Source of the DNA: Paludibacteraceae bacterium
GTDB lineage: Bacteria > Actinomycetota > Coriobacteriia > Coriobacteriales > Atopobiaceae
DNA: 64,000 nucleotides
NCBI GenBank assembly: GCA_963640745.1
Contig: CAVIBB010000001.1
Location: 13,155 to 77,154, forward strand
Reading direction: 5' to 3'
Both the position numbers and the translations under genes were made by a program. Below the pieces are notes generated by a model, which made no database searches, was not told where the DNA came from, and saw only the letters and a list, made by a program, of their open reading frames with translations. Each line of letters opens with the position of its first letter. The stretch's first letter is position 1. This document shows, in pieces, positions 8,912 to 52,578 of this stretch.

Positions 8912-9421
8912 CGCCCTGGAAGCTCGCCGCGCAGTAACGGGAGACCTCTCCGCGCCCCGAAACCTCACCGCGCAGCAACGACCTTCTCCCCCGCGCCCTG
9001 AAACCTCACCGCGCAGTAACGGGAGACCTCTCCGCGCCCTGAAACCTCACCGCGCAGTAACGGCCTTCTCCCCCGCGCCCTGAAACCTCACCGCGCAGTA
9101 ACGGAGCATTACTGCGCGACGCACTTCCAGGGCGGATGGAGCGCGAGGGTTGCTGCGCGGCGCGTTTCCAGGGCGGATGGAGCGCGAGGGTTGCTGCGCG
9201 GCGCGTTTCCAGGGCGGATGGAGCGCGAGGGTTGCTGCGCGGCGCGTTTCCAGGGCGGATGGAGCGCGAGGGTTGCTGCGCGGCGCGTTTCCAGGGCGGA
9301 TGGAGCGCGAGGGTTGCTGCGCGGCGCGTTTCCAGGGCGGATGGAGCGCGAGGGTTGCTGCGCGACGCGAATCTGGGGCGCTCAACGCAGGCTGGTTACT
9401 GCGCGGCGCAAGTCCGGGGCG
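8912..9421. repeat. 41-bp-period mirror array, family A (5 forward + 8 inverted cores of 27 bp)
   Basis: Cores like CGCCCTGAAACCTCACCGCGCAGTAAC at 8912, 8953, 8994, 9035, 9076; 5-bp gap; inverted cores at 9108, 9149, 9190, 9231, 9272, 9313, 9354, 9395. Confidence 0.95.
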
Positions 9422-9478
9422 CCCGGCCCGCAGCAACCGGCCCGCGACGCCCAAAGCGGCTTGAACGAAGTGAGCTCG

Positions 9479-10567
9479 TTACGCCTCGACCCCGGCGAGG
9501 CGGCAGTACTGGTCCAAATTGCTGCGGAACACAAGCTCAACGGAGCCGCGCTGCACGCCCTGCGCCGGCACCTCGCCGCGCAACAGGTAGTCACCCAGCG
9601 CGCGGGCGCCGCGATACGCGATGCCCACCGGGTCCTTGTAAACGATGTTCGTAAAGATCCCGCGGCGCATGGCGATGGCGTTCTCGGGGAAGAGGTCGCT
9701 CGCGATCACCGTGATCTCCCCCGCGCGGCCGAGCTCCAGCAGTGTGTCGGCCACGACCTCGGAACCGACGGCGAACACGCTGCACACCAGCCCCGGCGCG
9801 TCGTCGCCGGCAAGAAGCACCGCGAGCTTGCTTCGTAGCTCGTCGACCTCGGTGTGCGCGCCGTACAGGTCAAGGACCGCGTAATCGAGGCCGCGCTCAT
9901 CGAAGTAAGCGTGGAACGCGCGCGCGACGTCGGCGTGCGAATCCGTGTGCGCGTCACCTGCGAGCAGCAGGACCTTCTTGGATCCCTGGACGCCGGGAAG
10001 CAGGTTCGCCGCCTGCTCGGCCATGAGACTTCCCGCCTCGGCATACGCGGCTACGGTCGCGCAGAGCCTGCCGGTGTGCGGGCGGTCGCCGTCGACGAGC
10101 ACCAGGGCCACGCCGGTTGCGACAATCTTCGTCAGGATCTCGGTCGTGCCCGTCTCCACCGGCGCATAAGCAATCAAACCATCCGGGCGGTTGCCCGACT
10201 CGCATTCCGCCATAAGTGACGCGAGCGCCTCGCCGTAGCCGCCCATCTCGTAGGAGCGATACTCAAAGGAAAGGCCGTGGTCGCGGGATTCCTGGGCGAA
10301 CTGATCCACGCCGCGCCAAAGGTAGGCAAAGTAGAAGCTGCCCTCCTGAGCCGTGGAAGGCATGAGGACGACGACGCGGATGTCCTTGCGGCGCAGGATC
10401 GAGGCGCTCTCGTTGCGGTGATAACCGAGCTCCTCCGCACAAGCCAGAATCTGAGCGCGGACGGCGTCCGACACTCCGGGCTTATTGGCAATCACCTTGT
10501 GGACGGTGTTCACCGAGACGCCGACCTGCGCGGCGATATCTTTCATGGTTACGCGAGAGCTGCTCAT
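9479..10567 (-). CDS. LacI family transcriptional regulator
   Basis: N-terminal VTMKDIAAQVGVSVNTVHKVI..KPGVS HTH followed by a sugar-binding domain. Confidence 0.92.
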   Translation of the reverse strand: MSSSRVTMKDIAAQVGVSVNTVHKVIANKPGVSDAVRAQILACAEELGYHRNESASILRRKDIRVVVLMPSTAQEGSFYFAYLWRGVDQFAQESRDHGLSFEYRSYEMGGYGEALASLMAECESGNRPDGLIAYAPVETGTTEILTKIVATGVALVLVDGDRPHTGRLCATVAAYAEAGSLMAEQAANLLPGVQGSKKVLLLAGDAHTDSHADVARAFHAYFDERGLDYAVLDLYGAHTEVDELRSKLAVLLAGDDAPGLVCSVFAVGSEVVADTLLELGRAGEITVIASDLFPENAIAMRRGIFTNIVYKDPVGIAYRGARALGDYLLRGEVPAQGVQRGSVELVFRSNLDQYCRLAGVEA

Positions 10568-10667
10568 GGGGTCCTCGTTGTTTGGGGCGGCATCGTGCCG
10601 CGATATGCGAATCGTTCACCATAGTAGCGTGTGGCCGCTTAACGCCGGCCGGCCATACGGTGAGCGG

Positions 10668-11822
10668 TCAGCCTTCTTCGCCTTCGTCGTTTCCGCCGAT
10701 CCCAAGGCTGCCGAGTATTCCCGAGACGGACGGCAGCTCCACCTCAGGCGAGAAGGCCTTTGCCAAACCGGTAACCGCTCTGACCAAATAGCTGCGCTGT
10801 GTCTCGTCCAAGTCCGCAAACTGCGCAAACATGGCCGGAAGCGTCTCGGACAGATTGCCCTTGAGCCCGGCGAGCGTGTCTTGGCCCCCGGCGTACAGCA
10901 CCGAGAAGAGCGCGTTCACGAAGCCGGCCCGCTCCTCGGGGGTCATGGAGCGCACCCACTGGTTGAGGCTTTGGTCAAGATAACCCGCGGTCCTGGAAAG
11001 TCTCTCGGCCATCGCGAAGGCGTTGCCCTCGACGACCCAGCTGAACGGGTCGTGCTGCGTCGCGCCGACGCTCGTCGACCGCACGACGGCGTAGTCCTCC
11101 TGCTGCTCGAACATCATGCCGATAAGAGACGACTCCGGAACCGTCTTGCTTACCTTCGCGCAGCGCTCTGCGAAGTCCGCGGACGCCAGCGTCTCGGCGG
11201 TAAAGCCAGGCCCGTCGTGCGAGAACACGCGCTCGATGCGCTCGTATGTGGCTGGCTTGCAATGAGCGGCCGCATAAACGGCCAGGTTGCCGCCTTTTGA
11301 GTGGCCTCCCAGATAGAGCCGCCCCTTGACGGAACGCGCGACGCGCTCGAGGTACTGCACGGCGCGCAGCTGCGAGGGGACGCCGGTCTCGAAGGCCATG
11401 TTGAAGTCTTCTTTCCAGCCTACGAGCGAGTTGTCCGTGCCGCGGAAGCTCACGTAGGCGTCCCCGTTGGGAAAGCGCAGCGTGCATGCGGCGAACTGCT
11501 TCTCTTGCTCCTCGCTCGTCTCGCTCACGTAGGCGGCTAGGCGCACGCCAATGAGTCGCGGCGAGGCGACCGCGGCGGTAAGAAGCGCAACGAGCCCGTC
11601 CGGATCCCAGAGGCCCACAGTCATGGGGCCGAACCAGTCGGCGCGGTACAGCTCGTGCAGCCCCGCCCCGCGCATCCCGCGGGCGGACTTGGCTTCCTCG
11701 GGCAGACGGTAATACGAGAGGCAGGAAAGCACGAGGCTGTCCACGTCCGAGAGCGGCAGCTCATCGAACCCGCGGAACTCCCGCCCCAGGTAATCGACTA
11801 TGTTCTGCTCTCCTGCACTCAT
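10668..11822 (-). CDS. DUF2974 (Mbeg1-like) alpha/beta hydrolase
   Basis: FRGTDNSLVGWKEDFNM, GHSKGGNLA nucleophile elbow, HDGPGF, HDPFSW. Confidence 0.85.
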   Translation of the reverse strand: MSAGEQNIVDYLGREFRGFDELPLSDVDSLVLSCLSYYRLPEEAKSARGMRGAGLHELYRADWFGPMTVGLWDPDGLVALLTAAVASPRLIGVRLAAYVSETSEEQEKQFAACTLRFPNGDAYVSFRGTDNSLVGWKEDFNMAFETGVPSQLRAVQYLERVARSVKGRLYLGGHSKGGNLAVYAAAHCKPATYERIERVFSHDGPGFTAETLASADFAERCAKVSKTVPESSLIGMMFEQQEDYAVVRSTSVGATQHDPFSWVVEGNAFAMAERLSRTAGYLDQSLNQWVRSMTPEERAGFVNALFSVLYAGGQDTLAGLKGNLSETLPAMFAQFADLDETQRSYLVRAVTGLAKAFSPEVELPSVSGILGSLGIGGNDEGEEG

Positions 11823-12247
11823 AGCTCACCAGAAAAGAGCGCCGCCGCCTGGCCAATCGTCAACTTCCGGCAAGAAGAACCGGCGAAGCCACGCTCGTCT
11901 CGGGTAACGATGCCGTCAGCCGAGACGCCTTCGGCACCCGCCCGCACAAGGCCATCTTCAAAATCAGGCTCATTCGAACCGAGCGAGGCCTTGACCAAGC
12001 CGGCATCGCAGGGAATGAGCTCGAGGGCATTCGAAATCGCCGCAATCGCCTTACGAGCCGCCGGCTCGTCCCGATAATGACGGCATAGGATGTAGTACGC
12101 ATCCTTTAGGCTCGAGGCCAGGGCCATGAGGTTCTTTTCGCCTGTGGCAAGAGCGCGCGCGAACAGCTTGTGCGCATCCTCGTGAGAGGGCCGGCCCGGC
12201 GCCAACGCATCGATAAGCACACAGGTGTCGACCATGACTTTAGGCAT
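11819..12247 (-). CDS. PIN-domain toxin (VapC-like)
   Basis: VMVDTCVLID, DFEDGL, IVTRD motifs; start overlaps the antitoxin stop. Confidence 0.85.
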   Translation of the reverse strand: MPKVMVDTCVLIDALAPGRPSHEDAHKLFARALATGEKNLMALASSLKDAYYILCRHYRDEPAARKAIAAISNALELIPCDAGLVKASLGSNEPDFEDGLVRAGAEGVSADGIVTRDERGFAGSSCRKLTIGQAAALFSGEL

Positions 12248-12521
12248 AACGCTCCCCCAAAAGATCGCGGTCCGCAGACTTCGAGTCGTCAAGCCAGGGC
12301 ACCTCGGGTAGGGTCTCTGTTATCGAGACGGCTCGCTCGAACCACTCGAGGGGCGAGACCTCGGGCGCCTCCTCGTGCCTGGCAATCGAAACGGAATCCC
12401 CGTCGAAGGAAATATCCACACTGTCGCCCGCGCTCACCGAAAGCACTTTGAGGACGGCCGGAGGCAGCGCGACGCACGAACTGTTGCCGTTTCTCGTTAT
12501 CTTTCGCGTCACGGTATGCAT
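12240..12521 (-). CDS. AbrB/MazE/SpoVT-family antitoxin
   Basis: RKITRNGNSSCVALP...GDSVDI swapped-hairpin motif; AAGGAGG RBS. Confidence 0.85.
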   Translation of the reverse strand: MHTVTRKITRNGNSSCVALPPAVLKVLSVSAGDSVDISFDGDSVSIARHEEAPEVSPLEWFERAVSITETLPEVPWLDDSKSADRDLLGERYA

Positions 12522-12533
12522 CATGGCCTCCTT

Positions 12534-12558
12534 ATGTACGTACATTATGTATGTACAG
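12534..12558. promoter_or_regulatory. Probable TA autoregulatory operator
   Basis: Perfect palindrome ATGTACGTACAT at 12534-12545 and near-copy ATGTATGTACAG at 12547-12558, next to a minus-strand TATACT -10-like hexamer at 12557-12562. Confidence 0.55.
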
Positions 12559-12595
12559 TATAACCAAAGTACTGTCGAGCAGACCCCAAGCCCCC

Positions 12596-14809
12596 CTACC
12601 CCTTAGGTTTCCAGCGGCGGCGGGTGGCATGGGCACTACCCTTGCGGGCGCCGGCCTTGAGACGAGCCATGACGTCGTCGGTGCTCGCGCCCTCAAGGCG
12701 GCTCTTTACCTCGACGAGCTGGTCTCGGGCGGCTGCGGCGCGTTCGAAATCCATCTCCTCGGAGGCGCGGGCCATCTCGGCCTGCAAGCCCGCCGCAAGC
12801 TCCTCGAGCTCAGAACGAGACAGCTCGCCCAGGTCCAGGACGTGGCGGTCCTCAGGCGCCCCCTGTTCGTCGGCGCCCTCGCCCGAGGCGGTGTAGAACG
12901 CGCCGTGGCCCAGCTCGTCGCCCCGGCTGCGCTTGCGCTTGCCCACGTTATCGTCCGCCTCGGCGATAAACGCGCTGATGTCGTTGATGGCCTTATGGAC
13001 CGTCTTTGGCACGATGCCGTGCTCGGCGTTGAACGCCTGCTGGATCTCTCGGCGGCGCGCCGTCTCGTCGATGGCGACGCGCATGGAGTCGGTAACCACG
13101 TCCGCGTACATGATGACCTGGCCTTTTGCGTTTCTTGCCGCGCGTCCCATGGTCTGAATGAGCGAGCGGCGGTTACGCAGGAAACCTTCCTTATCCGCGT
13201 CGAGGATAGCCACGAGCGAGACCTCGGGGATGTCGAGACCCTCGCGCAGCAGATTAATACCCACGAGCACGTCGATACGCCCCTCGCGCAGGTCGCGGAT
13301 GATCTCCACGCGCTCCAGCGTCGCGGTGTCCGAGTGCATGTAGTTGACCCGGACCCCCTCGTCGAGCAGATGGTCGGTCAGGTCCTCGGCCATGCGCTTG
13401 GTAAGCGTGGTCACGAGCACGCGCTCCTTGATAGCCACGCGGGTCTTTATCTCCTCGATAAGGTCGTCTATCTGCCCCTCGATGGGGCGCACCTCGACCT
13501 CCGGGTCCAGAAGGCCCGTCGGGCGAATGATCTGCTCCACGCGCCGCTGCGAGACGGACTCCTCGTAGTCGCCCGGCGTCGCGCTCACGTAAATGAACTG
13601 CGGCACGCGCCCCTCGAACTCGTCGAAGCGAAGCGGGCGGTTATCGAGCGCGGAGGGCAGGCGGAACCCGTGCTCGACCAGCGTGACCTTGCGGGAGCGG
13701 TCGCCCTCGTGCATGCCGCGGATCTGCGGGACGGTCACGTGGCTCTCGTCGATGATGCAAACCATGTCCGACGGGAAGTAGTCGATGAGCGTGAAGGGCG
13801 GCTCGCCCGGCTTGCGGCCGTCGAGGTGGCGCGAGTAGTTCTCGATGCCGTTGCAGAAGCCCATGGTGTCGAGCATCTCGAGGTCGTAGGCCGTGCGCTG
13901 AGAGAGGCGCTGGGCCTCCAGGAGCTTATCGGCGGCCTTGAGCTCGGCCACGCGGGCCTCGAGCTCGTCGTTGATGGTCTTAAGCGCGCGGCCTACCTTC
14001 GGACGCTCGGTCACGTAGTGCGACGCCGGCCAGATGGGGATGGCGTCGAACTCGCGCACAATCTCGCCCGTAACGCCGTCCACCTCGGCAATGAGCTCGA
14101 CCTCGTCGCCAAAGAAGCTCACGCGCAGCGGGTTCTCCGCATACGGCGGGAAGACGTCGACGGTGTCCCCGCGCACGCGGAACGTGCCGCGCGCCAAGTC
14201 GTAGTCGTTGCGGTCGTACTGGATATCGATTAAGGACTTGATAAGTTCATCGCGTTCGAGCGGCTCGTCCTTGCTCACATTGGGCGCAAGACCCGCGTAA
14301 TCCTGCGGGCTGCCGATGCCGTAGATGCAGCTCACCGAGGCGACCACGATGACGTCGCGGCGAGAAAGCAGACTCGAGGTGGCCTGGTGGCGCAGCTTCT
14401 CGACCTCCTCGTTAATGGAGGAGTCCTTCTCGATGTACGTATCCGTCTGCGGGACGTAGGCCTCAGGCTGATAGTAGTCGTAGTAAGAGACGAAGTACAC
14501 GACGGCGTTGTTCGGGAAGAACTCGCGCATCTCGGAGGCGACCTGGGCAGCCAGGGTCTTGTTCGGCTCCATGATGAGGGTCGGGCGGTTGAGCGCCTCG
14601 ATGGTCTTTGCCATGGTGAAGGTCTTGCCCGAGCCCGTGACGCCCATGAGCGTCTGGTAGCGCAGGCCCTCCTCGACGCCTTGTGCGAGCTTCTCGATGG
14701 CCTGGGGCTGGTCGCCTGCCGGCTCGAACTCGGAGACGACGCGCAGGGGCTCGCCTGCGCCTTCCCGGCCGAATCGCTTGAGCTCGCCGCCGAACCGCTC
14801 GTCTGCCAT
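12596..14809 (-). CDS. uvrB: Excinuclease ABC subunit B
   Basis: [44 protein letters not shown] and a C-terminal UVR domain. Confidence 0.98.
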
Positions 14810-14835
14810 GCCGACCTCCCTCTATTTGCTAAACT

Positions 14836-14849
14836 AGTACAAGTGTACC
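14836..14849. promoter_or_regulatory. Possible SOS-box-like site (GTAC-N4-GTAC)
   Basis: AGTACAAGTGTACC just upstream of the uvrB RBS; same geometry as the Gram-positive LexA box GAAC-N4-GTTC. Confidence 0.35.
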
Positions 14850-14920
14850 AGTATTTTGCATGGTGATAGCCGACACGCGGCGCTTGGATAAAATAAAGGG
14901 AGAGAACGTCTACTCAAGGG

Positions 14921-17227: not shown

Positions 17228-17263
17228 GCCGTCCGACGCCGCGCGCGGCGAGGTTACATCAGG

Positions 17264-17869
17264 CTACACGGCCGCTTCGCCCGTCAAACCATCGGGATAG
17301 CTTTTCTGATAGCCCTCGTAGGCGGCCTTGACCCGCTCGAGGTAATACTTCGTCTCTGAATAGCTCACGCTCTCGGGCACCGAGCCGCCCTCGTCGAGCC
17401 AGCGCTGCACGGCGGCGAGGCCTGCGTTGTACGCGCAGACGACCTCGTCCGACGAGCTCAGCTCGTTCTGAAGGATCCCCAGGTAGGCACAGCCGTATTC
17501 GATGTTCACGACGGGGTCGGAAAGAGAAGACGGGTCATAGGCGTCCCCGTCCACGAGTCCGCGCTCCGCGAGCTCGGCGGCCGTCGAGGGCATGACCTGC
17601 ATGAGGCCGACGGCGCCCGCGCTCGACTCGGCCGTCTCGGTCCAGTTCGACTCGCACTTGGCCACGGCTGCCACGAGCAAGGGATCCACCCCGTGGCGAG
17701 CAGCCGACTCCTCGATCTGCTCGGCATACTTGACGGGGTAGAAGGCCTGGGCCACCAGTGTGGTCGGAGAAGCCGCGAGCGTGGCCGAGGCCGCGAAGGC
17801 GATGGCCAAGACGAGCATGGGCAGCACCCGGAACCAGCGCAGGAAGCGCGTGGGTTTCTTACTCGCCAT
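17264..17869 (-). CDS. Lytic transglycosylase (SLT domain)
   Basis: AVAKCESNW, GAVGLMQVMP, AYNAG and ETKYY motifs; N-terminal TM segment. Confidence 0.9.
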   Translation of the reverse strand: MASKKPTRFLRWFRVLPMLVLAIAFAASATLAASPTTLVAQAFYPVKYAEQIEESAARHGVDPLLVAAVAKCESNWTETAESSAGAVGLMQVMPSTAAELAERGLVDGDAYDPSSLSDPVVNIEYGCAYLGILQNELSSSDEVVCAYNAGLAAVQRWLDEGGSVPESVSYSETKYYLERVKAAYEGYQKSYPDGLTGEAAV

Positions 17870-18491: not shown

Positions 18492-18662
18492 AGAGGATTG
18501 CTCCCAAGTGCGATTAAGGTGTGTTCGGGACGCAAAGGCTTGCGGGCAAAGCATCATACCATGCACGATGCGAGCCCCGAACGGCGCCGCGCATCCACCA
18601 CAGACTCGCCCAACCAGGGTCGAGCGGGCATTCGACTCGGTTTTGCCGGCCCCAGCAGGGGC

Positions 18663-18789
18663 ATGCCCGACTTATCCCACTTTAAAATTCAACTCGCCGA
18701 GTAGCCGAGGCCATTTTGGGCACGTTTTCCCAGTTGAGTCGGCTCGGATACTCGCTAAATCCAATTTTAAAGTGGGATAAGTCGGGCAT
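18663..18789. repeat. 127-bp hairpin/MITE-like element, copy 1
   Basis: Perfect 27-bp terminal inverted repeats ATGCCCGACTTATCCCACTTTAAAATT (18663-18689 and 18763-18789); central CCCAGTTGAG. Confidence 0.9.
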
Positions 18790-18908: not shown

Positions 18909-18983
18909 TGGTGGGCGTTACAAGATTTGAACTTGTGACCTCTTCCGTGTCAGGGAAGCGCTCTCCCCCTGAGCTAAACGCCC
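18909..18983 (-). tRNA. tRNA-Val (anticodon GAC)
   Basis: GGGCGTTTAGCTCAG...CTTCC-CTGACAC-GGAAG...GTTCAAATC...ACGCCCACCA folds as a cloverleaf with encoded CCA. Confidence 0.97.
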
Positions 18984-26958: not shown

Positions 26959-27172
26959 TGCAAAGTTTTACGCCAAGTGCGACGCAGCACGGTGCTCCGT
27001 GCAAGGTTTTACGCCAAGTGCTGCGTAAAACAGGGCCCAACCGCCCCTCAAAAGGCGAAAACAGCCCCTAAATCCGCCTTGAAGGGCACTCCACGACCGA
27101 AATCACGTCGCACTTGGCGTAAAACCTTGCAGCGCATCGCCCGTTACGTCGCACTTGCGTAAAAACTTTGCA
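26959..27172. repeat. 41-bp-period mirror array, family B (2 + 2 cores of 26 bp)
   Basis: TGCAARGTTTTACGCCAAGTGC at 26959 and 27000; inverted copies at 27106 and 27147; 80-bp centre. Confidence 0.9.
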
Positions 27173-42605: not shown

Positions 42606-42682
42606 CATAGTTGGTGTCGATAAAAACGAGCGAAAACTCGGCGCGCCCCTGGACGCGCCGCTTTTTTGGAAAAGAGACGGCC

Positions 42683-44905: not shown

Positions 44906-44911
44906 CAAGAA

Positions 44912-44946
44912 GGGCCGCAAGCCTGGTGGTTTGCGGCCTCTCTTTT
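44912..44946 (+). terminator. Intrinsic terminator after nrdD
   Basis: GGCCGCAAGCC...GGTTTGCGGCC followed by TCTCTTTT. Confidence 0.7.
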
Positions 44947-45077
44947 GGGTGGCTATATCAATGTTCGAATGATGCGAAGGAGCTGTTCATTCGCATCGTT
45001 TCGCGTCTCTCCCCTCCCCTGAAAACGTGGCAAAATGTAGGGTTGCACACACGTACACGCGCGTAATGGAGGAACGC

Positions 45078-46748
45078 ATGTCCGAGGCAATCCGCAAGGT
45101 CAACGTCATTGGCCACCTCAACCCCGACACCGACAGCATCTGCTCGGCGATCGCCTACGCCTACCTCAAGAACAAGGTAGAGAACACCACCATCTACGAG
45201 GCCCGTCGCGCCGGCTCCGTCAACCGCGAGACCGCCTTCGCGCTCAAGCACTTCGGCTTCTCCGAGCCCCCGCTGATCACCACCGTGACCCCGCAGATCA
45301 AGGACACCGAGGTCCAGAAGCAGGAGGGCATCGACTCCGAGACGAGCCTCTTCGAGGCCTGGAACGTCATGCGCGAGTCCAAGACCGACACGCTCTCCAT
45401 CACCGACGGCGACGACAACCTGCTCGGCCTTATTGCCACCAAGGACATCGCCAACGCCAACCTCGACATCTTCGACATCGAGGTCCTCGGCAACTCCAAG
45501 ACCAAGTTCGCCAACATCGTGAGCACCCTCAACGGCGAGATGATCCTCGGCGACCCCGAGGCGCGCGTCGAGGCCGGCAGCCTGCGCGTGGGCACCACCC
45601 CCGAGATGATGGAGGACACCGTCAAGGCCGGTGACCTCGTCCTCGTGACCAACCGCTACGAGACCCAGCAGTTCGCCGTGGGCGCCGAGGCCAGCTGCAT
45701 CGTCGTCTGCTGCGGCGCCTCCGTGTCCAACCAGGTCAAGGAGTCGGCCGAGCGTCACGGCTGCACCATCATCGCCACCCCTTACGACACCTACGCCGCC
45801 GCGCGCCTGATCTGCATGTCCATCCCCGTGCGCGCCAAGATGATCTCCGAGAAGTCGACCATCAAGTTCAGCGTGAACACCTCCGTCGACGACGCCAAGA
45901 AGACCATCGCCAGCTCGCGTCACCGCTTCTTCCCCGTCATCGACGAGGACGGCAAGTACGTGGGCCTCGTCAACACCGCGAGCCTCCTCTCCGCAAAGAA
46001 GAAGCACGTCATCCTCGTTGACCACAACGAGAAGAGCCAGGCGGTTGACGGCCTTGAGCAGGCCGAGATCATGGAGATCATCGACCACCACCGCATCGGT
46101 TCCATCGAGACCGAGGCCCCCGCGCTCTTCCGCAACATGCCCGTGGGCTGCACGAGCACCATCATCTACCAGATGTTCCAGGAGAACGGCCTCGAGATCC
46201 CCAAGGACATCGCCGGCCTCATGCTCTCCGCCATCATGTCCGACACCCTCGCGTTCCGCTCCCCCACCTGCACCTCGATGGACGTCAACGCCGGCGAGGC
46301 CCTCGCGAAGATCTGCGGCGAAGACATCCCGACCTACTCCGACGCCATGTTCGAGGCCGGCGCCGACCTCACCGGCCGCTCCGCCGATGAGGTCTTCCAC
46401 CAGGACTTCAAGGTCTTCTCCCGCGGCAACGTCAAGTTCGGCGTGGGCCAGGGCTCCTTCATGACCGACAACTCCCGTAAGGCCGCCGAGAAGCTCGTCG
46501 GTCCCTACCTCGAGGAGGCCGCCAAGAACGAGGAACTCCCGATGGTGTTCTACATGTTCACCGACGTGAAGACCTCCACGACCGAGCTGCTCTACTTCGG
46601 CGAGGGCGCCGAGGACGTCATCAAGCGCGCCTGGGGCGCCGACGTGGTCGACGGCATCGCGGTCCTGCCGGGCGTCGTCTCCCGCAAGAAGCAGATGGTG
46701 CCGCCGCTGATGGCCACCTTCCAGAAGATCCAGGAGGAGCAGGACTAA
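45078..46748 (+). CDS. ppaC: Mn-dependent inorganic pyrophosphatase with CBS/DRTGG insert
   Basis: GHLNPDTDSI, LVDHNE, IIDHH, VSRKKQ plus an internal CBS-DRTGG-CBS region. Confidence 0.92.
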   Translation: MSEAIRKVNVIGHLNPDTDSICSAIAYAYLKNKVENTTIYEARRAGSVNRETAFALKHFGFSEPPLITTVTPQIKDTEVQKQEGIDSETSLFEAWNVMRESKTDTLSITDGDDNLLGLIATKDIANANLDIFDIEVLGNSKTKFANIVSTLNGEMILGDPEARVEAGSLRVGTTPEMMEDTVKAGDLVLVTNRYETQQFAVGAEASCIVVCCGASVSNQVKESAERHGCTIIATPYDTYAAARLICMSIPVRAKMISEKSTIKFSVNTSVDDAKKTIASSRHRFFPVIDEDGKYVGLVNTASLLSAKKKHVILVDHNEKSQAVDGLEQAEIMEIIDHHRIGSIETEAPALFRNMPVGCTSTIIYQMFQENGLEIPKDIAGLMLSAIMSDTLAFRSPTCTSMDVNAGEALAKICGEDIPTYSDAMFEAGADLTGRSADEVFHQDFKVFSRGNVKFGVGQGSFMTDNSRKAAEKLVGPYLEEAAKNEELPMVFYMFTDVKTSTTELLYFGEGAEDVIKRAWGADVVDGIAVLPGVVSRKKQMVPPLMATFQKIQEEQD

Positions 46749-46908
46749 CTCCTGCCCTTCCAAGCTTTTGGGGAACGGGTCTTCTCCGTGCTCAAACAGT
46801 CCTGTTCGCACGGGCGAGACATTAAGTCTCGTCCGGCTCATGCGGAACTGCGCGCGGAGAAGGCCCGTTTCCCTTGTCACGGCCGAATCCCTACAAAGAG
46901 AGAAGCAC

Positions 46909-47748
46909 ATGCACGGATTGCATGCCAGGTTGCCGAAGAACTTCGTGCTCGAAGAGCGGATCGAGAGGTACCGCGACTATATCGAGGCCGACCCGTACTC
47001 ATGGGCGGGCCGCTGGGCCGAGGCATGCGCGCCGACGGGTGCCGAGGCCTTCCGCGAGGTGAGACTCGACCTCGGGTGCGGAAAGGGCTCCTTTACCGTG
47101 GAGGCGGCGCGGCGCGAGCCCGACGTGCTCTTTATCGGCATGGACTCCGAGCCCATCTGCATCGCCTACGCGGCGCAGCGCGGCTTCGAGTCGGGGCTGC
47201 CCAACGTCGTCTTCGTGCCCGGCACGGGCATGCGCATCGGCGAGATGTTCTCCCCTGGTGAGCTGGGCGTTATTTACCTGAACTTCCCCACGCCGTTCCC
47301 TCGAAAGAAAGACTCGAAGGGCCGGCTCGTCAACCTCGAGCGACTTATGGACTACCGTGGCGTCCTACGTGACGGCGGCGAGGTGCGCCTGCGGACCGAC
47401 TCGCAGCCGCTCTTCGACTTCGCGCTCACGCAGGTCCCTCTTGCCGGCTACGAGCTCACGTGGCAAAGCCGCGACGCCCGCGCGGAGCGTCCCGACGACC
47501 CCATGAGCGAGTACGAGGAGCGGCTCGGCTCCCAAGGCGCGCTGGTCAACAGCTATATCGCCGTTCCGGGGCCCGCGCCCGAAAACCCCGTCCAGACCGC
47601 GGAGATGAGCCTCGCCGCCTACATCCCCGACGACCTCTCGAGCTTCGACGGCTACGCGCCCCACGGCATGCAGGGCACCATCGAGAACCTGCGCCGCCGC
47701 GCCCAGAAGAACAACGGCGACTGGAGCCGCGGCATCACGCTTTCGTAA
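46909..47748 (+). CDS. trmB: tRNA (guanine-N7)-methyltransferase
   Basis: LDLGCGKG, YLNFPTPFPRKK, LRTD, SEYE. Confidence 0.9.
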   Translation: MHGLHARLPKNFVLEERIERYRDYIEADPYSWAGRWAEACAPTGAEAFREVRLDLGCGKGSFTVEAARREPDVLFIGMDSEPICIAYAAQRGFESGLPNVVFVPGTGMRIGEMFSPGELGVIYLNFPTPFPRKKDSKGRLVNLERLMDYRGVLRDGGEVRLRTDSQPLFDFALTQVPLAGYELTWQSRDARAERPDDPMSEYEERLGSQGALVNSYIAVPGPAPENPVQTAEMSLAAYIPDDLSSFDGYAPHGMQGTIENLRRRAQKNNGDWSRGITLS

Positions 47749-47760
47749 GCGGGTCGCACG

Positions 47761-48147
47761 CGCCCCAGAAACGCGTCGCACAGCAATCTGGCGCGATCGC
47801 GCGCCCCGAGATTGCGTCGCGCAGCAACCCGACGCGGCCGCGACCCCTGGAAGCACGCCGCGCAGTAACGTTGTCAACGAATTCGCCCCGGAAGTGCGCC
47901 GCCCAGTAAGGTTTGATTACTGGGCGGCGCACTTCCGGGGCGTTCTTCTTGCCGGCGTTACTGGGCAGCGAGGTTCCAGGGCCCGGCAACGGTCACGGTT
48001 ACTGGGCGGCGCACTTCCGGGGCGTTCTTCTTGCCGGCGTTACTGGGCGGCGAGGTTCCAGGGCGCGGCAACGGTTGCGGTTGCTGGACGACGAGGTTCC
48101 AGGGCGCGGCAACAGTTGCGGTTACTGGGCGGCGCGCTTACGGGGCA
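47761..48147. repeat. 41-bp-period mirror array, family A (4 forward + 6 inverted cores)
   Basis: Cores at 47761, 47802, 47843, 47884; 5-bp gap; inverted cores at 47916, 47957, 47998, 48039, 48080, 48121. Confidence 0.95.
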
Positions 48148-48166
48148 CTTTCGGGCCGCGAAGCAC

Positions 48167-49036
48167 TTATTCCGGCAAGAAGCCCTCGAAGATGGCCACG
48201 GCACCCTCGGCCTCGCACTGGGCAAGCTCTTCCTTGCTGCGGACGGTCCACTCAACGAGGTGCGCGCCCAGGACGTCGCACGAGAGCCGGACCGCCGCGT
48301 TGTTGCGGTCGCGGAACCGATACGCAACGAAATCCGGTCGGGCAGCCGCGTTGGAAAGAAGCGCCGTTCCGCCGACGCGCTGGTAGAGGGGCCGCCAGTC
48401 GTCTTCGAGGAAGTTCTGCGCAAGCTGCCCGCGGATAACCTCGGGCCGGTGACGACGCAGCCACATGACGACGCGCGGGTCAAAGCTCTCCGCGCAGAAG
48501 CGCACAAGGTGCTCATCGAGGCATGCCATCGTACGCTCGCAGAGCGCATCCGCGTTGCCTCCGCGGGTCTTGAGCTCGACGATCACGAACGGCGGCAGCT
48601 CCGACTCTCCCGTAGGGTCGCACTCAAACACGGAGAGCGCTTCGTCGAGCGTCGGGATGCGCTCGTCGGTGCCGGCGAGACGGCATTCACGAAGCTCGCC
48701 CAGGGTCATTTCCTCGACGACGCCGCAGCACCCGCACATGCGCCCGAGCTCGGAGTCGTGGATGACCACGAGCTCGCCGTCGGCGGTCAGATGAACGTCG
48801 AGCTCGACGCCGAAACCCCGCTCGCGCGCACGGCGGAAAGCCGCGACCGAGTTCTCGGGAACGCCGTCGCCGTGCAGGCCGCGGTGCGCGTAGCGATAGC
48901 GCGAGATCTCTCGCCACTGCTGGCCAAGCACCGCGCCCCCGTGTCGAGGCGCCAATACGGCGCAGGTAGCAGCACATGCCGCAATAGCAGAACCGGTCGC
49001 GACCGCCGCGACGCCAAGGACTTTGCTAGCTTTCAT
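48167..49036 (-). CDS. Glycerophosphodiester phosphodiesterase
   Basis: AHRG, ENS, ELDVHLTADG, VIHD, VELK, SFDP, WTV; N-terminal membrane anchor. Confidence 0.9.
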   Translation of the reverse strand: MKASKVLGVAAVATGSAIAACAATCAVLAPRHGGAVLGQQWREISRYRYAHRGLHGDGVPENSVAAFRRARERGFGVELDVHLTADGELVVIHDSELGRMCGCCGVVEEMTLGELRECRLAGTDERIPTLDEALSVFECDPTGESELPPFVIVELKTRGGNADALCERTMACLDEHLVRFCAESFDPRVVMWLRRHRPEVIRGQLAQNFLEDDWRPLYQRVGGTALLSNAAARPDFVAYRFRDRNNAAVRLSCDVLGAHLVEWTVRSKEELAQCEAEGAVAIFEGFLPE

Positions 49037-49201
49037 AGCTCCCCCAAGAGATGAGCCGAAGTTTTCGGAACCCGCACGGGCCCAACCGCACGCGAAACAT
49101 ACCCAAACAGTATGCCACTCGCCGTGCGCGCCCCGCCCAGCGACCCGTCGAAGGTAAATGGGTAGTAAGGTAGATGTTCCGAACTTCGAGAAAGGCCCAT
49201 C

Positions 49202-51145
49202 ATGCCTCAAATAAAACCCGGCCACCGACTCTACCTGTACCGCCTTTTTGCGCGCGAGCTCGGCGTTGGCAAGCAAACCGCCCTCGACCGCGCAGCCGAC
49301 GTGCTCACGGCGGACGGGCTCGCCCCCGCCGACCTCGGCTTCGACGATGCCCGCTCGCTCTTCGAGGCACTCGACGAGTGCATCAAACTCACCGTCTTCA
49401 AAAAGAACGCCGTCTTTGTGACGGTTACCGCGAATGAGGCCTATGACCAGGCGCTCGCTCGCGCAAGCAAGTCCGACGGCGAGAAGCCCGCGAACGGCAA
49501 GCCTTGGAAACGCCAGCGCGGCGGCAAGAACATCAAGCCCGTCCGGCCCAAGCACATCGAGCCGCCGAAGCCCGAGCCCGGGCCTGAGCCTGAGTCTGAG
49601 CCCGAGGTTGAAGCGGCACTCGCCGCCACCGAGCCATCGCCCGCCCCGACAGAGAATGCCGTCGAGGTAGAGGTCGTCGTCGACGCTACCGCGGAGGTGC
49701 CCGAACCCGAGACGGCCGACGTCCCCGAACCCGAGGGGAACGAGCCCGAGGCCGTTGCCGCCGAGGCGGCAACGGGCGAAGCAACCGCCGAGCCCGAGGC
49801 CGTGGCCGTGGTAGATACCGTTGCCGCAACCGAGCCCGAGGCCGCAGCCGTGGCCGAGCCCGCCGTCGCCGACGACCCCGTGCCCGTTTCCGACGCCCCT
49901 GTCAACGAGACCCCCCGCGAGGCCCCCGTCAAGGCCGCCGCGCCCTCCATCCACTTGACCATCACCTATGCCCCCGACCCCATCGAGGACCCTGAGCCGG
50001 CAGCCGCGCCCGAGCCGGAGCCCGCTCCGGAGCCCGCGCCGGCCGCGAAACCGGAGCCGCCGCTGGCCCCGGCACCCGCCCCGCGTCCCTCTCGCCCGGC
50101 AAATGACCTGCCTCAGGATTTCTACGCCGACGTCATTGTTACCGACGAGCCGCTTTCTGCCCTTTATCAGGTGCTTCCCGTGGATGTCGACCCCGTCGCA
50201 ACCCTCGAGGAGGATTTCCGCATCGCCCGCTCGACCGGCACGCTCGCCGGCACCCGCAGCGAGGTCAGCTTCCCCCTGCGCTTCCAGCGCAAGAACGGCG
50301 AGCCCGTCATGGCAACCCTCCGCCGCCGCGCCCGCAGCGTCGCCGGCAAGCGCTGGACGCTCGCGAGCATCGAGGCCGACTCCCCTGAAGAGGTCGGGAT
50401 GGGCGCGCTCGAGCACAAAGCTGCGGGCCCCTGGGCCGCATTCGCCAACGAAGACCAGCTCAAGGGCACTATCAGCCCCGAGGCCGAGCTTGCGCAGTTC
50501 GCAGTTCTCGGCTCATGGGACAAACTCCTGAAGCAGCTCTCCGAGCTCGCCGCGCCCGAGGACTGGGGAGAGGACCGCGCTATCCTGCGCGAGTATCTCT
50601 CGATGACGTATCGCCGCATCGCCAGGCAGCACCGGCTCTCCATGGCTGACGACGGCTCAGGCGCCGCCTTCGATACCGGCCTTGTCACGGCCGAGGGCGA
50701 GACGATCGCCGCCGTCCTCGAGCCCCATGACGGCGACATCGCTTGGGAGCTCACGTGCTTCTCGGTAAACGCCCAGGGCCAGCCCGCGACCTACCTGCCC
50801 CACTTCGCCCAGCCGAAGGCGACTGCGGGACGCGCTGCGGAAGCGACGCTCGACGAGCTGCGCCGCTCGGCTTCCGAGGTGACGGGGTCGCTGCGCCGCG
50901 CCCTGCAGCAGGCCATCCGCAACCCCCGTTACGCCACGCTCGCCTACGACGCTGTGAACGACCGCGTGGTCGGGCTTCTTCCCGTCGATGGCAAGGTGTG
51001 CGCGGTCGTTGCCGGCGAGAACGGGGAGGCGCAGGTCGTGGCCACCGTCGACGCGCACGACGCCTACGTCTGCGCCCGCGTGGTTAGCTCCGAGCAGCCT
51101 TCTTGGCTGGTAAACATGGCAAAGGCCGGGCAGGCCGAGGGTTAG
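49202..51145 (+). CDS. Hypothetical multidomain protein with Pro/Glu/Ala linker and possible DUF3825-like C-terminus
   Basis: Globular N-terminus, long PE/A-rich linker, then EDWG...ILREYLSMTYRR...AAFDTGLVT. Confidence 0.55.
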   Translation: MPQIKPGHRLYLYRLFARELGVGKQTALDRAADVLTADGLAPADLGFDDARSLFEALDECIKLTVFKKNAVFVTVTANEAYDQALARASKSDGEKPANGKPWKRQRGGKNIKPVRPKHIEPPKPEPGPEPESEPEVEAALAATEPSPAPTENAVEVEVVVDATAEVPEPETADVPEPEGNEPEAVAAEAATGEATAEPEAVAVVDTVAATEPEAAAVAEPAVADDPVPVSDAPVNETPREAPVKAAAPSIHLTITYAPDPIEDPEPAAAPEPEPAPEPAPAAKPEPPLAPAPAPRPSRPANDLPQDFYADVIVTDEPLSALYQVLPVDVDPVATLEEDFRIARSTGTLAGTRSEVSFPLRFQRKNGEPVMATLRRRARSVAGKRWTLASIEADSPEEVGMGALEHKAAGPWAAFANEDQLKGTISPEAELAQFAVLGSWDKLLKQLSELAAPEDWGEDRAILREYLSMTYRRIARQHRLSMADDGSGAAFDTGLVTAEGETIAAVLEPHDGDIAWELTCFSVNAQGQPATYLPHFAQPKATAGRAAEATLDELRRSASEVTGSLRRALQQAIRNPRYATLAYDAVNDRVVGLLPVDGKVCAVVAGENGEAQVVATVDAHDAYVCARVVSSEQPSWLVNMAKAGQAEG

Positions 51146-51393
51146 AGCCGTAACTGCGCCGGGCTCCAAACGGCTCGTCCACATCAACCCGCACGCAGCC
51201 CCAGCAGGGTGCCTGCGAGCGGGTTTTCTTCATCGTGGCCCAATTGGCGCCTGCCTTTGGTCGCTCGGCGCCTTCTCGCGTGCCCGCGGCATCGTGAGCG
51301 CCGCGCAATGCTCCGGGATGATGCGCGTCGTCAACGGGGTCCTCTTCCCCATAATGGTGTTCAACGCGATCTTTACCAGCGAGAGGAACGCGG

Positions 51394-52323
51394 GTGATTC
51401 TAAACACAGGTTGCCGGACGGATATCCCGGCATACTTCAGCGAGTGGTTTTATCGCCGAGTGAGCGAGGGCTTCGTCATGGCGAGAAACCCGTACCGACC
51501 CGAGCTCGTAACCCGTTACGCACTGGATCCGCGGGTCGTCGACGTCATCGGCTTCTGCACGAAGAACCCGGCGCCGATGCTGCCCCGGCTCGGCGAGCTC
51601 AGCGCCTTCCGGCAATTCTGGTTCGTGACTTGTACGCCCTATGGGCGCGAGATCGAGCCCAACGTGCCGGATAAATCAGAGGTTCTTGAATCAATAAAGA
51701 AACTGTCCGCGCTCGTCGGGCCGCGCGCGGTGGGCTGGCGCTACGACCCCGTGTTTCTTACCGAGCGATACAGCGTCAATTATCATCTGCGGGCCTTCGA
51801 GAAGATGTCCGCGGCGCTCGAGGGGCGCGTGGCCTTCTGCGTCGTGAGCTTCATCGACCTCTACGCAAAGACGCGGCGGAACTTCCCGGAAGCGCGTGAG
51901 GTCACCCTCACTGAACAGCGGTTTCTTGTTAGCGAGTTTGTGCGAATCGGCGCGGCGCACGGCATCGGGATCCGTCTGTGCTGCGAGGACCCATCCCTCG
52001 CGGAATGCGGGGCAGGCATCGGCGGCTGCATGACGCAAGAGGTGCTCGAGCGGGCATTCAGCATAAAGCTCGACGTCCCCGCGTCAAAGCGCTCACCGCG
52101 CGACCAATGCGCGTGCCTGCTCGGCGCGGATATCGGCACTTACAACACCTGCCCGCACGGCTGCGTTTATTGCTACGCGAACTATGACTGGCAGACCGTC
52201 GCGCGCAACCTGAGGCTACACGACCCCGCGTCGCCACTGCTCATCGGGCACGTGCAGCCGAGCGACACCGTCCGCGACGCGCAGCAGGAGAGTTATCTGG
52301 CCCGGCAACTCTCGCTTTTCTAA
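51394..52323 (+). CDS. DUF1848 family protein (radical-SAM-like)
   Basis: RTDIPAYFSEWF, FCTKNP, WRYDP, DIGTYNTCPHGCVYCYA. Confidence 0.9.
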   Translation: MILNTGCRTDIPAYFSEWFYRRVSEGFVMARNPYRPELVTRYALDPRVVDVIGFCTKNPAPMLPRLGELSAFRQFWFVTCTPYGREIEPNVPDKSEVLESIKKLSALVGPRAVGWRYDPVFLTERYSVNYHLRAFEKMSAALEGRVAFCVVSFIDLYAKTRRNFPEAREVTLTEQRFLVSEFVRIGAAHGIGIRLCCEDPSLAECGAGIGGCMTQEVLERAFSIKLDVPASKRSPRDQCACLLGADIGTYNTCPHGCVYCYANYDWQTVARNLRLHDPASPLLIGHVQPSDTVRDAQQESYLARQLSLF

Positions 52324-52347
52324 AGAAGGCGCAAGAAGGCCGCGGCC

Positions 52348-52578
52348 GTTGCGAAAAACAGGGTGACGGCAATGGGACCGGCCGCCGCGTTGCGGTAAAC
52401 GGGGTGATGGCAGAAAAATCGCCGGAAAAGTTGCGAAAACGGGGTGATGGCAGGGGCGCGCCACGGGCACGCTGCCATCACCCCGGATTACGCAACAAAG
52501 AGGCCTCGTTTATTGCCATCACCCCGTTTTGCGCAACGTGGCGGCGGGCCCGACTGCCGCCACCCCGTTTTGCGCAAC
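52348..52578. repeat. 41-bp-period mirror array, family C (3 + 3 cores of 23 bp)
   Basis: GTTGCG..AAACGGGGTGATGGC at 52348, 52389, 52430; inverted at 52474, 52515, 52556; 18-bp linkers. Confidence 0.92.

Follow-up and report, generated by a model that had tools for sequence, protein, structure and literature searches.

Introduction

To our knowledge, how small dispersed bacterial repeats originate and spread has been worked out mechanistically for just a few of their classes, namely REP elements (RAYT), MITEs (IS transposases) and CRISPR (Cas1-Cas2); STAR, BOX and many others are orphans. A REP/BIME unit is an imperfect palindrome (a stem-loop of 20-40 bp) with an unpaired GTAG or CGTC tag, and the RAYT gene is flanked by the repeats. 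MITEs have defined ends, terminal inverted repeats and a target-site duplication, and in CRISPR arrays, which lie at one or a few loci with a leader and cas genes, repeats of 24-48 bp alternate with unique spacers that are about as long or longer. Vsr-like nucleases are recognized by a PD-(D/E)xK-type fold with conserved acidic and histidine residues.

According to the part of a REP survey drawn on here, in which the word Actinobacteria is absent, REP elements occur in intergenic DNA on the 3´ side of genes, preferentially between convergent ones, differ by species at orthologous sites and are targets of IS elements (PMC3733652). The STAR repeats of Staphylococcus have a 14-bp core and 40-44-bp spacers, and in the portion of that paper used here the word 'inverted' is absent and no linked enzyme gene is described (PMC3532100). 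I-Bth0305I is presented, in the part of its description used here, as a multidomain, dimeric protein with a footprint of about 60 bp (PMC3239194).

Here we describe intergenic arrays from a Paludibacteraceae bacterium (GTDB Coriobacteriia; Atopobiaceae). No published description of such arrays was found in the literature searched, and no Rfam family matched them. Like REP, BIME and REPIN elements, the arrays consist of short repeats that number tens to hundreds of copies in intergenic DNA, downstream of unidirectional genes and between convergent ones; there are several families per genome, species-specific variants stand at orthologous sites, inverted copies give long hairpins, and IS elements insert. 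As with REP and RAYT, a single enzyme gene appears bracketed by repeats of its own, with which it diverges. The array unit, however, is non-palindromic and set in a fixed 41-bp lattice, with arms of direct cores and one flip; the array-linked enzyme joins an AbiEi-like part to a Vsr-like (PD-(D/E)xK) nuclease and does not belong to the Y1 HUH transposases, and the host lineage is high-GC. With STAR, as far as the portion of that paper used here describes it, the arrays share direct repeats of a short conserved core, spacers that differ from locus to locus but hardly in length, intergenic siting, and expansion and contraction by local duplication. This likeness is one of layout alone, with no sequence relation; STAR does not have several families at one period, and the mirror flip is extra in the arrays.

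Results

The window is a stretch of 64,000 nt (contig CAVIBB010000001.1 of assembly GCA_963640745.1, positions 13,155-77,154, forward strand). The whole assembly, G000 below, comprises 2.39 Mb in 234 contigs and is 93.9% complete. A preliminary description of the window had listed four intergenic mirror elements (8912-9421, 26959-27172, 47761-48147 and 52348-52578) built from three core families. All four were found again at these positions and in a 41-bp register, and the three families were confirmed, with E1 and E3 both belonging to family A:

8912..9102: E1 left arm, five family-A cores (the + strand reads the reverse complement of the core), 41-bp register, TRF period 41/82
9103..9107: E1 centre, 5 bp, where the orientation flips
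9108..9421: E1 right arm, eight family-A cores
26959..27024: E2 left arm, two family-C cores, 41 bp
27025..27106: E2 centre, 82 bp of locus-specific sequence
27107..27172: E2 right arm, two family-C cores, 41 bp
47761..47910: E3 left arm, four family-A cores, the outer ones degenerate
47911..47915: E3 centre, 5 bp
47916..48147: E3 right arm, six family-A cores in an 82-bp double-unit pattern
52348..52452: E4 left arm, three family-B cores at spacings of 41 and 40
52453..52472: E4 centre, 20 bp, the '44' geometry of family B
52473..52578: E4 right arm, three family-B cores, 41 bp

Two linkers alternate in the E1 left arm, forming an 82-bp double unit. In the E1 right arm one linker is common to six units, and the orthologous array in the related genome G015 has a single such unit; the repeated units are a recent tandem amplification. 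The E2 centre is conserved in G015, where conservation is about 94% across the entire 2.3-kb matched region, and the length of family-C centres (82, 92 or 93) is kept from locus to locus. The E3 left arm starts 13 bp past the stop codon of the upstream gene.

A genome-wide histogram of repeat periods, proposed in the preliminary description as a check, has 41 as its outstanding non-coding period. TRF returned 414 non-overlapping arrays across the assembly, 53 with period 41 and seven with period 82, and every other period of 25 or more has at most 14 arrays. Counts of 11-mer self-distances reach 1319 at a distance of 41, with 21 at 40 and 116 at 42. The census comprises 87 loci, where families A, B and C together contribute about 460 cores, and there is a fourth family, D, in addition; scans recovered 319 A, 110 B and 30 C cores (3, 1 and 0, respectively, with reversed-motif controls).

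Core length is 24-27 bp across the families and linkers are 14-17 bp. Every locus passes from direct cores through a single flip to inverted cores, with 2-8 cores per arm, and this polarity is fixed, the reverse order occurring in no case within 400 bp. Same-orientation neighbours lie 41 bp apart in 194 of 219 (A), 60 of 67 (B) and 14 of 14 (C) pairs; about 90% of core spacings are exactly 41. At the centre of family-A arrays the start-to-start distance is 32 in 43 of 47 flips. Cores begin with GTTAC (A), GTTGC (B and A', a variant described below) or GTCCC (D), and family C has CGTC just before and running into the core; these are not the GTAG tag. The family-B tag is at the outer end, in contrast to those of A, C and D. 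Central cores are best preserved and the outermost are decayed, fading into the flanks without a sharp end. It is close to certain that this repeat class is real and under constraint.

The rarer spacings differ in steps of about 10 bp, with 51 seen in six cases and 31 in two, which fits helical phasing, although few variant spacings stand behind this argument and, at 10.5 bp per turn, 41 bp falls slightly short of four turns (3.9). In five family-B arrays the innermost core has moved by 10 bp and the outer lattice is unchanged (51+34 = 41+44), all five 51 spacings of this family being paired with a centre of 34 in place of 44. A 33+51 geometry is also present in G015, G005, G010 and G016. Family-A spacings are off by 1-3 bp in only about 5% of cases, despite saturated linkers. 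Given this constraint and the shared period, the best reading is that the arrays are made or read by a single mechanism, as the preliminary description had proposed. Among its three candidates (a REP/BIME-like enzyme with a fixed ruler, a protein binding in phase, and an RNA processed into 41-nt units), in-phase protein binding fits best; RNA processing leaves the 10-bp steps unexplained. The shared period is real and extends to D, to C', to A' in G010 and to several families in G002, but it is not universal: the related family H of G017 has a period of 30 at eight or more loci, the C-like arrays of G009 have a period of 40, and family D has both 40 and 41.

Neither linkers nor centres are conserved from locus to locus, and linker columns carry about zero information. 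Hamming distances between linkers within a locus are bimodal, with 39 pairs at three or fewer differences and the bulk, random-like, at about 10 of 14. Near-identical, locus-specific core variants stand beside unrelated linkers in 2.45% of family-A pairs (0.14% between loci) and 13.3% of family-B pairs (3.2% between loci), a likeness of neighbouring cores that may signal core-only copying. Arrays have grown recently through tandem duplication, the duplicated unit being 41 or 82 bp long. Within a locus, mirror linkers and mirror cores show no more complementarity than those of different loci do, and since pairing is not locus-specific, the core sequence would be what is read.

The siting noted in the window, behind gene 3´ ends and between convergent genes, recurs across the genome. 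Arrays directly follow stop codons and fill the entire gap between convergent stops. With flanks called by a crude GC3-based gene caller, the 60 loci with two called flanks divide into 20 convergent, 34 tandem and 6 divergent, an enrichment of convergent gaps over the background of all intergenic gaps (14% convergent, 15% divergent).

The families had been described as unrelated, and this did not hold for all of them. In comparisons made by eye only, A, A' and D have a sequence block in common and agree in polarity and in the geometry of the centre, and C, C' and a family of G009 intergrade. In G010, A' numbers 42 cores at 14 or more loci, in the same 41/32 geometry as A; it stands in G010 at sites that carry A in G000, G015 and G007, the site orthologous to E3 among them. 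The change from A to A' involves about eight core positions in 40 or more cores throughout G010. These comparisons of sequence show core variants that are species-specific and switch genome-wide. G015 has the largest number of B cores (125).

The window holds no cognate enzyme gene, as had been reported, and a candidate was found elsewhere in the genome. It encodes a Vsr-like nuclease, one of the gene families that had been named for a check of adjacency, and the family adjoins arrays at several loci. The family is multi-copy and combines an AbiEi-like N-terminal domain with a Vsr/I-Bth0305I-like nuclease domain. In the predicted fold of the candidate, G000:C65:2354-3517 (pLDDT 89), residues 178-300 superpose on the I-Bth0305I catalytic domain (3r3p_A; VIA-align Z 11.3, rmsd 2.5 Å, 95 of 97 residues), VIA-align also gives Z 9.6 with 3hrl, and residues 1-173 superpose on AbiEi (Z 7.9). 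D225 is invariant in the family, and H250, D259 and R262 are nearly so. The model thus has the Vsr-like/EDxHD fold, with putative catalytic function. A profile match to 3r3p_A has an E of 0.014, and PF18741 matches 6 of 28 family members weakly; Pfam and NCBIfam give the protein no name at their thresholds, and Foldseek alone returned no match at E <= 0.001. Whereas I-Bth0305I, AbiEi and DUF559 proteins are the nearest described relatives in type, the candidate lies outside introns and inteins and is chromosomal, multi-copy and bracketed by arrays. No report linking this AbiEi/Vsr-like protein type to dispersed repeats was found in the literature searched.

A periodic segment is present in the flanks of 16 of 30 paralogue loci. 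In six genomes, at three independent loci, the gene is bracketed on both sides by mirror arrays:

Locus 1: G000 C65 (G000:C65:2354-3517) and G016 C45
Locus 2, beside a pstS-like gene: G015 C13, G010 C54 and G009a
Locus 3: G017 C1

The base rate of array-bracketed genes in G000 is 4 of 1812. In G009 the flanking core family is confined to the nuclease locus, and in G017 the flanking arrays have a period of 30, the genome-wide period of family H. The nuclease tree was shown to follow the core family, as judged from the protein sequences: the B-flanked pair groups at 0.99, the H-flanked gene joins it at 0.95, the A- and A'-flanked pair groups at 0.92 and the C-adjacent trio at 1.0. Orthology alone could yield part of this agreement, the six bracketed genes representing three independent loci.

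The remaining 14 of the 30 paralogue loci are without a periodic flank, including 8 of 10 in G000. G015 has no close relative of the B-flanked gene, and at that locus it has only a solo B array. The A-rich assemblies G000 and G007 are without the A-clade gene, and the locus there is split across contig ends. The bracketed copies in G009 and G017 have one internal stop each, and the G010 copy is frameshifted. On these comparisons, the chances that the nuclease is the cognate enzyme of the arrays are about even.

Discussion

We judge it about as likely as not that the arrays are the cognate DNA sites of site-specific Vsr-like nucleases, which would copy the cores after binding them in phase with the helix. 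In this model, the N-terminal winged-helix-like domain would recognize the core, and protein units on neighbouring cores would touch on one helix face about four turns apart (three in family H), such that contact between bound units would hold the spacing at 41, or at 31 or 51. The nuclease would nick or cut the DNA, and repair from a different core would then carry over the core but not its linkers, which would account for core homogeneity and for the species-wide switches of core type. The long interrupted hairpins would be a by-product, likely serving as two-way transcript-end structures that replace plain terminator hairpins.

More tentatively, and with somewhat less than even confidence, we suggest a new enzyme-linked repeat class, in which a nuclease encoded between its own arrays acts as a phased oligomer and spreads and homogenizes cores, each lineage setting its family sequence and period. 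By analogy, the nuclease/array pair may be read as a REP-RAYT-like repeat/enzyme system with another enzyme and another grammar, and would be a functional counterpart made of unrelated parts. The arrays stand out for their regularity, with a fixed lattice, a single flip and random linkers, and the candidate linked to them is a concrete, testable protein of a type (AbiEi-like plus DUF559/Vsr-like) that is very common but still has no function assigned. If the nuclease link is true, it would give that protein type a role, explain a repeat period by protein geometry, and provide a natural set of matched nuclease/25-bp-site pairs with species-specific specificities. Even without an enzyme link, the arrays are a marked genome feature that takes over from ordinary terminators, breaks short-read assemblies, flanks an accessory gene island and attracts IS elements.

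It is possible, but in our judgement unlikely, that the arrays are structural only, being two-way transcript-end hairpins or cruciforms grown by slippage from an inherited 41-bp unit, with the nucleases as bystanders. Arrays span the gaps between convergent stops and fold very stably (-262 and -179 kcal/mol, z -11.1 and -11.8), and plain hairpins occupy the equivalent sites in G001 and G010. The latest growth is simple tandem duplication, A, A' and D look akin, as do C, C' and the G009 family, and G015 keeps arrays without the clade-I gene. A hairpin, however, requires complementary arms and no fixed core, and the pairing observed is not locus-specific. Hairpins also tolerate unequal loops, which leaves exact spacing with saturated linkers and 10-bp steps unexplained. 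The switch from A to A' is hard to obtain by local drift, and the bracketing of nuclease genes far exceeds the base rate.

The bracketing itself has another reading, since a 19-kb pectin-utilization island is likewise flanked on both sides by copies of one A array, G002 having no island at that junction; bracketing may thus mark arrays as recombination or insertion sites for any cargo. We consider it improbable that the arrays are such hot spots, made by something else, with the nucleases as selfish homing-type cassettes that duplicate them. The two arrays beside a nuclease gene arose by duplication and have diverged from one another, as have those around the island; an IS3 lies within a B array and an IS256, together with an 8-bp duplication, exactly at the centre of an A array; the nuclease family is multi-copy with many broken copies, and its top structural match is a homing endonuclease. 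Against this, the gene at the pstS locus stays put in G015, G010 and G009 and the flanking arrays diverge along with it. The flanking core family of G009 is found nowhere else in that genome, so there is no array population for a cassette to land in, and in G017 the flanking period equals the genome-wide period of its family.

Compared with cognate sites of a nuclease, ordinary REP/BIME elements mobilized by a RAYT (Y1 HUH) transposase are a very improbable account in spite of the shared siting, species-specific occupancy and IS targeting. PF01797 has no match in the G000 assembly (93.9% complete, 234 contigs), in a search that matched 6 of 14 control genomes; single cores or 41-bp units of A, B and C, folded as DNA (-2.4, -0.8 and -2.7 kcal/mol), do no better than shuffles (z +1.9, +0.3 and -0.7); and each arm is made up of successive direct cores, whereas REPs alternate. 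With no RAYT gene found and cores that are not palindromic, the arrays are not REP/BIME members, and the REP/BIME-like enzyme of the preliminary description is set aside in its strict sense.

CRISPR-like or type-III-antitoxin-like arrays with transcripts cut into 41-nt units can hardly be credited: constant repeats, unrelated fixed-length spacers, degenerate outer (oldest) repeats and signals of core-only duplication are shared, but the linkers are just 14-17 bp, the 87 loci are dispersed, with 2-8 repeats per arm and neither leader nor adjacent toxin gene, the mirror layout is unsuitable, Rfam gave no match, and matches of linkers to the genome are no better than one over-represented word accounts for, so that we do not class the arrays as CRISPR. 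Elsewhere, the same genome carries an ordinary CRISPR array with a period of 65-66.

A dispersed class of 41-bp mirror arrays

The four intergenic arrays that had been described in the window at a 41-bp register are all confirmed, and the register is exact. Each runs as direct cores at 41-bp spacing, one flip at the centre and then inverted cores, with linkers between the cores. Three core families (A, B and C), with motifs in the range of 24-27 bases, make up the four, and two genes of the window are listed with them.

Features of the window
8912-9421: E1, family A, five left and eight right cores, 5-bp centre
10668-11822, minus strand: Mbeg1-like protein gene (PF11187, E 7e-80), adjoining the LacI-type gene after E1
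18912-18983, minus strand: tRNA gene, the sole Rfam match of the window
26959-27172: E2, family C, 2+2 cores, 82-bp centre
47761-48147: E3, family A (the same as E1), 4+6 cores
52348-52578: E4, family B, 3+3 cores, 20-bp centre

At Rfam gathering thresholds the window yields the tRNA alone, and the arrays match no Rfam family. The period scan was extended to the whole source assembly (G000; 2.39 Mb, 65% GC, 234 contigs), in which the window is C1:13155-77154, and gave a sharp peak at 41. Among 414 non-overlapping arrays found by TRF, 53 have period 41 and seven have period 82, and every other period of at least 25 has 14 arrays or fewer. Counts of 11-mer self-distances reach 1319 at 41 vs 21 at 40 and 116 at 42, and the 58 11-mer pairs that still lie at distance 41 once A, B and C are masked indicate further families. 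Core copies number 319 for A, 110 for B, 30 for C and 61 for a family D, against 3, 1, 0 and 2 matches for the respective reversed-motif controls, and A, B and C together form 87 loci.

These loci follow strict rules. Same-orientation neighbours are exactly 41 bp apart in 194 of 219 cases for A, 60 of 67 for B and 14 of 14 for C. All multi-core loci have one flip and constant polarity, with the 'GT' end of the core pointing to the centre in A, C and D and outward in B; the opposite arm order was found in zero cases within 400 bp. Centre geometry is family-specific: the start-to-start distance is 32 in 43 of 47 A centres and in 14 D cases, 44 or 34 in B, and 107, 117 or 118 in C. The cores nearest the centre are the best preserved, and the outermost ones decay into the flanks. 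It is nearly certain that the arrays are a real, constrained and lineage-specific class of dispersed repeat. Contigs often terminate in arrays, with 12 of the 87 loci no more than 100 bp from an end. The short-read assembly probably breaks there, which would make the copy numbers lower bounds.

Inheritance and turnover in relatives

A search for A, B and C in 41 genomes (its own, 18 of the genus and 22 others, the relatives' genomes being read in part) showed that the families are nearly confined to the genus, where they are patchy. In the species collection, the only other carriers of exact A cores are two MAG records.

Core counts in the 41-genome search
Family A: G000 215, G015 166, G007 125, few elsewhere
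Family B: G015 125, G000 71, G001 18, G010 10
Family C: G015 30, G000 20

Comparison of filled and empty orthologous sites, which the preliminary description had proposed, shows that arrays are inherited and remodelled. At the E1 site, G015 shares flanks, centre and linkers with G000 and has only 3+4 units; growth in G000 took the form of a duplicated 82-bp double unit on the left and one six-fold unit on the right. The site is empty in G010 and G001, which have plain hairpins in place of the array. At the E3 site, centre and inner linkers are common to G015 and G000, in G007 the A cores are separated by different linkers, the lattice of G010 is unchanged but holds a variant core (A'), and G002 has a different core at period 30-31, again with a flip. 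Across the genome of G010, A' forms a family of 42 cores at no fewer than 14 loci, in 41 and 32 geometry; neither G000 nor G015 has it. At the E2 site, the C array is preserved in G015, centre included; G010 carries a variant, C', which is present at one other G000 locus, a further variant forms a 1+1 pair in G007, and G001 has a plain hairpin. By-eye alignment suggests that A, A' and D are related, as are C and C'.

Further afield, A, B and C are missing from G002, but several families of low copy number there combine period 41 with a flip. In 440 kb sampled from the complete genome G009, there are C-like 2+2 arrays of period 40, and the 41 signal is absent. Of two genomes from another genus of the family, G024 contains a single 41/39 mirror array (L096:13860-14114) amid many other repeat types, and no array of this type was found in the sample of G021. 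Those other repeats in G024 include a direct array of more than 20 units at period 31 (C6, L104:1590-2200) and arrays of 22, 38 and 53 bp. Together, the orthologous sites and sampled genomes show that the array grammar is lineage-wide, that the 41-bp period dominates one sub-clade, and that cores are replaced species by species.

Spacing, linkers and helical phase

The linkers carry no information in any column. Linker distances within a locus are bimodal, 39 pairs having at most three differences and most pairs being as unlike as random sequence, and linkers of different loci are unrelated, save in a few paralogous arrays. Length shifts of 1-3 bp affect only about 5% of A spacings. Diverged linkers with so few small length changes suggest that the spacing is selected or reset by a ruler. 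Larger departures from 41 are 31 (n=2) and 51 (n=6). All five B spacings of 51 belong to the innermost left pair of an array whose centre is 34 rather than 44, so a single core has shifted by 10 bp with the remaining lattice intact. A 33+51 geometry recurs in G015, G005, G010 and G016. Such steps, one helical turn in size, speak for recognition of duplex DNA and not of RNA; most likely, the spacing is read on the duplex in helical phase.

Locus-specific core variants are common to neighbours whose linkers are unrelated at rates above chance (2.45% vs 0.14% for A; 13.3% vs 3.2% for B), a hint that cores are copied or converted without their linkers. Pairing between mirror-image linkers or cores was considered and rejected, because complementarity within a locus is no higher than between loci; it is the core sequence that is conserved, rather than locus-specific pairing. 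Capture of linkers from elsewhere in the genome was likewise set aside: A linkers have 60 exact 14-mer matches outside arrays vs 15 for shuffles, and the excess comes mostly from GGCAAGAAG-containing linkers and GC-rich words. The word GGCAAGAAG/CTTCTTGCC is the second commonest 9-mer of the genome (654 copies), though merely 5/9 G+C, and is about four-fold denser within arrays (1.19 vs 0.26-0.28 per kb), in both orientations; examples in the window lie at 47940-47955 and 48150-48175. It may serve as a word of the uptake, Chi or KOPS type.

A candidate enzyme

The leading explanation, in our judgement at about even odds, is that the arrays are the cognate sites of a family of AbiEi-like/Vsr-like nucleases. 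In this model, binding of the nucleases to the cores would be cooperative, cut-and-repair would copy the cores, and the folded arrays would act as two-way transcript ends as a side effect. The lead member, G000:C65:2354-3517 (387 aa, counted from its first start codon), has a complete B array on either side, and the two arrays have linkers in common. The family has 4-16 copies per genome in 19 of 19 genus genomes, many with internal stops, and 34 database relatives are unnamed and mostly on 1-3-kb contigs.

The protein has no match at threshold in Pfam or NCBIfam. Its structure was modelled from 28 sequences (pLDDT 89, pTM 0.87). In the model, residues 178-300 superpose on the I-Bth0305I catalytic domain (Z 11.3, rmsd 2.5 A, 95/97 residues; VIA) and on a Neisseria Vsr-like protein (Z 9.6), and residues 1-173 on AbiEi (Z 7.9), suggesting a two-part architecture of these kinds; the superpositions are a second look at the list from Foldseek, which gave no match against the PDB at E <=0.001. 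A profile match to 3r3p_A (E 0.014) and PF18741 in 6 of 28 members are weak and agree with the structure. D225 never varies, and H250, D259 and R262 hardly do.

Vsr-like nucleases were among the gene families that the preliminary description had suggested seeking beside arrays, and they are indeed found there. Among 30 paralogue loci scanned with a period detector, 16 have periodic segments in the flanks and five have them on both sides; similarity added a sixth bracketed gene, with A arrays on both sides (G015 C13). The six genes represent three chromosomal loci.

Array-bracketed nuclease genes
Locus 1: G000 C65 and G016 C45, near an alpha-glucosidase gene; flanks B and a B variant
Locus 2: G015 C13, G010 C54 and G009a, beside a pstS-like gene; flanks A, A' and family G
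Locus 3: G017 C1; family H, period 30, both sides

On its far side, locus 2 has a MarR-like gene in G015 and G010. As a base rate, of the 1812 genes predicted in G000, 4 are flanked on both sides by A, B or C arrays no more than 350 bp away, and 118 are so flanked on at least one side. In G009, family G was found at the nuclease gene only; in G017, the 29 cores of family H are spread over at least 8 loci, every one of which has period 30 and centre 27. A C array lies just 3' of a further paralogue in five genomes. A tree built from 27 fragments places the two B-flanked genes together (support 0.99) and adds the H-flanked gene to them (0.95); it pairs the A-flanked gene with the A'-flanked one (0.92), G009a coming next, and unites the C-adjacent genes in a clade (1.0). 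RAYT genes and their REPs are known to show this pattern of a repeat-bracketed gene whose tree tracks the repeat family. We found no published description of DUF559/MTES_1575/Vsr-like proteins tied to intergenic repeats in a literature search of journals open without subscription.

Several observations speak against the link. G015 tops the B core count in the 41-genome search, yet has no close relative of the B-flanked gene, whose locus there is a solo B array. The A-clade gene is missing from the G000 and G007 assemblies, although in both the flanks of its locus fall on separate contigs (in G000, a contig end and a contig start), so the gene may be unassembled. Nuclease copies are broken in G009, G017 and G010, and arrays are absent from the surroundings of half of the paralogues. 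Plain orthology may account for part of the match between the tree and the core families.

Placement, folding and insertions

The arrays may instead simply be sites where DNA becomes inserted, nuclease genes among it. A 19-kb pectin/rhamnogalacturonan utilisation island (window positions 1-8911 and upstream G000:C1:3074-13154) is flanked on each side by a paralogous copy of the same A array, at G000:C1:2810-3073 and E1. It encodes a LacI-type regulator, two oligogalacturonate lyases, GH88, GH28, a polysaccharide deacetylase, a rhamnose mutarotase and two MFS transporters. In G002, which lacks the island at this junction, the outer flanks adjoin with plain hairpins alone between them. That an island of this kind is also array-bracketed is what suggests mere places of insertion.

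Mobile elements also lie within arrays. At G000:C2:13940-15363, an IS256-family element, its transposase frame broken by a run of N, sits exactly in the 5-bp centre of an A array. Its gene was rejected as the cognate enzyme because the 8-bp target duplication marks a secondary insertion at the centre. At G000:C150:1491-4576, an IS3-family element, itself split by an IS110-family transposase gene, interrupts a B array, with two B cores on one side and a 2+3 array on the other.

By flanking genes, as called by a crude GC3-based gene caller, 20 of 60 loci are convergent (background 14%), 34 tandem and 6 divergent (background 15%), and at many loci the array starts 13-30 bp past a stop codon. Arm size shows no bias with respect to transcription direction (10 larger, 13 equal, 11 smaller). 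When folded, complete arrays give long hairpins with interruptions (-262 and -179 kcal/mol; z -11.1 and -11.8), and lone cores and lone units fold no better than shuffles.

Relation to known repeats

REPs occur as palindromic units in head-head, tail-tail and head-tail dimers and clusters (PMC3733652, in the portion available to us, which makes no mention of Actinobacteria). The arrays resemble REPs in position, species specificity and targeting by IS elements. An REP/BIME enzyme, one of the generators put forward initially, does not hold in the strict sense: the units are non-palindromic, the arms are direct runs, and neither a RAYT gene nor another Y1 transposase was found in G000. STAR elements share the layout of a core with locus-specific spacers and, unlike the arrays, have no inverted arm; their origin is given as unknown in the portion of the source available (PMC3532100). 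The same literature search returned no published description of 41-bp mirror arrays or their grammar.

G000 also holds periodic sequences of other kinds. An ordinary-looking CRISPR array (G000:C15:23211-24820), with self-distance peaks at 65-66 bp, is unrelated to the 41-bp arrays. Tandem arrays of tRNA-like genes occur at G000:C92:4208-4704 (period 84, 5.9 copies) and G000:C36:9353-9658 (period 112, 2.7 copies). At a contig edge, G000:C94:1-290 carries AT-richer 41/31-bp repeats, unlike the other families, which may be plasmid or phage iterons.
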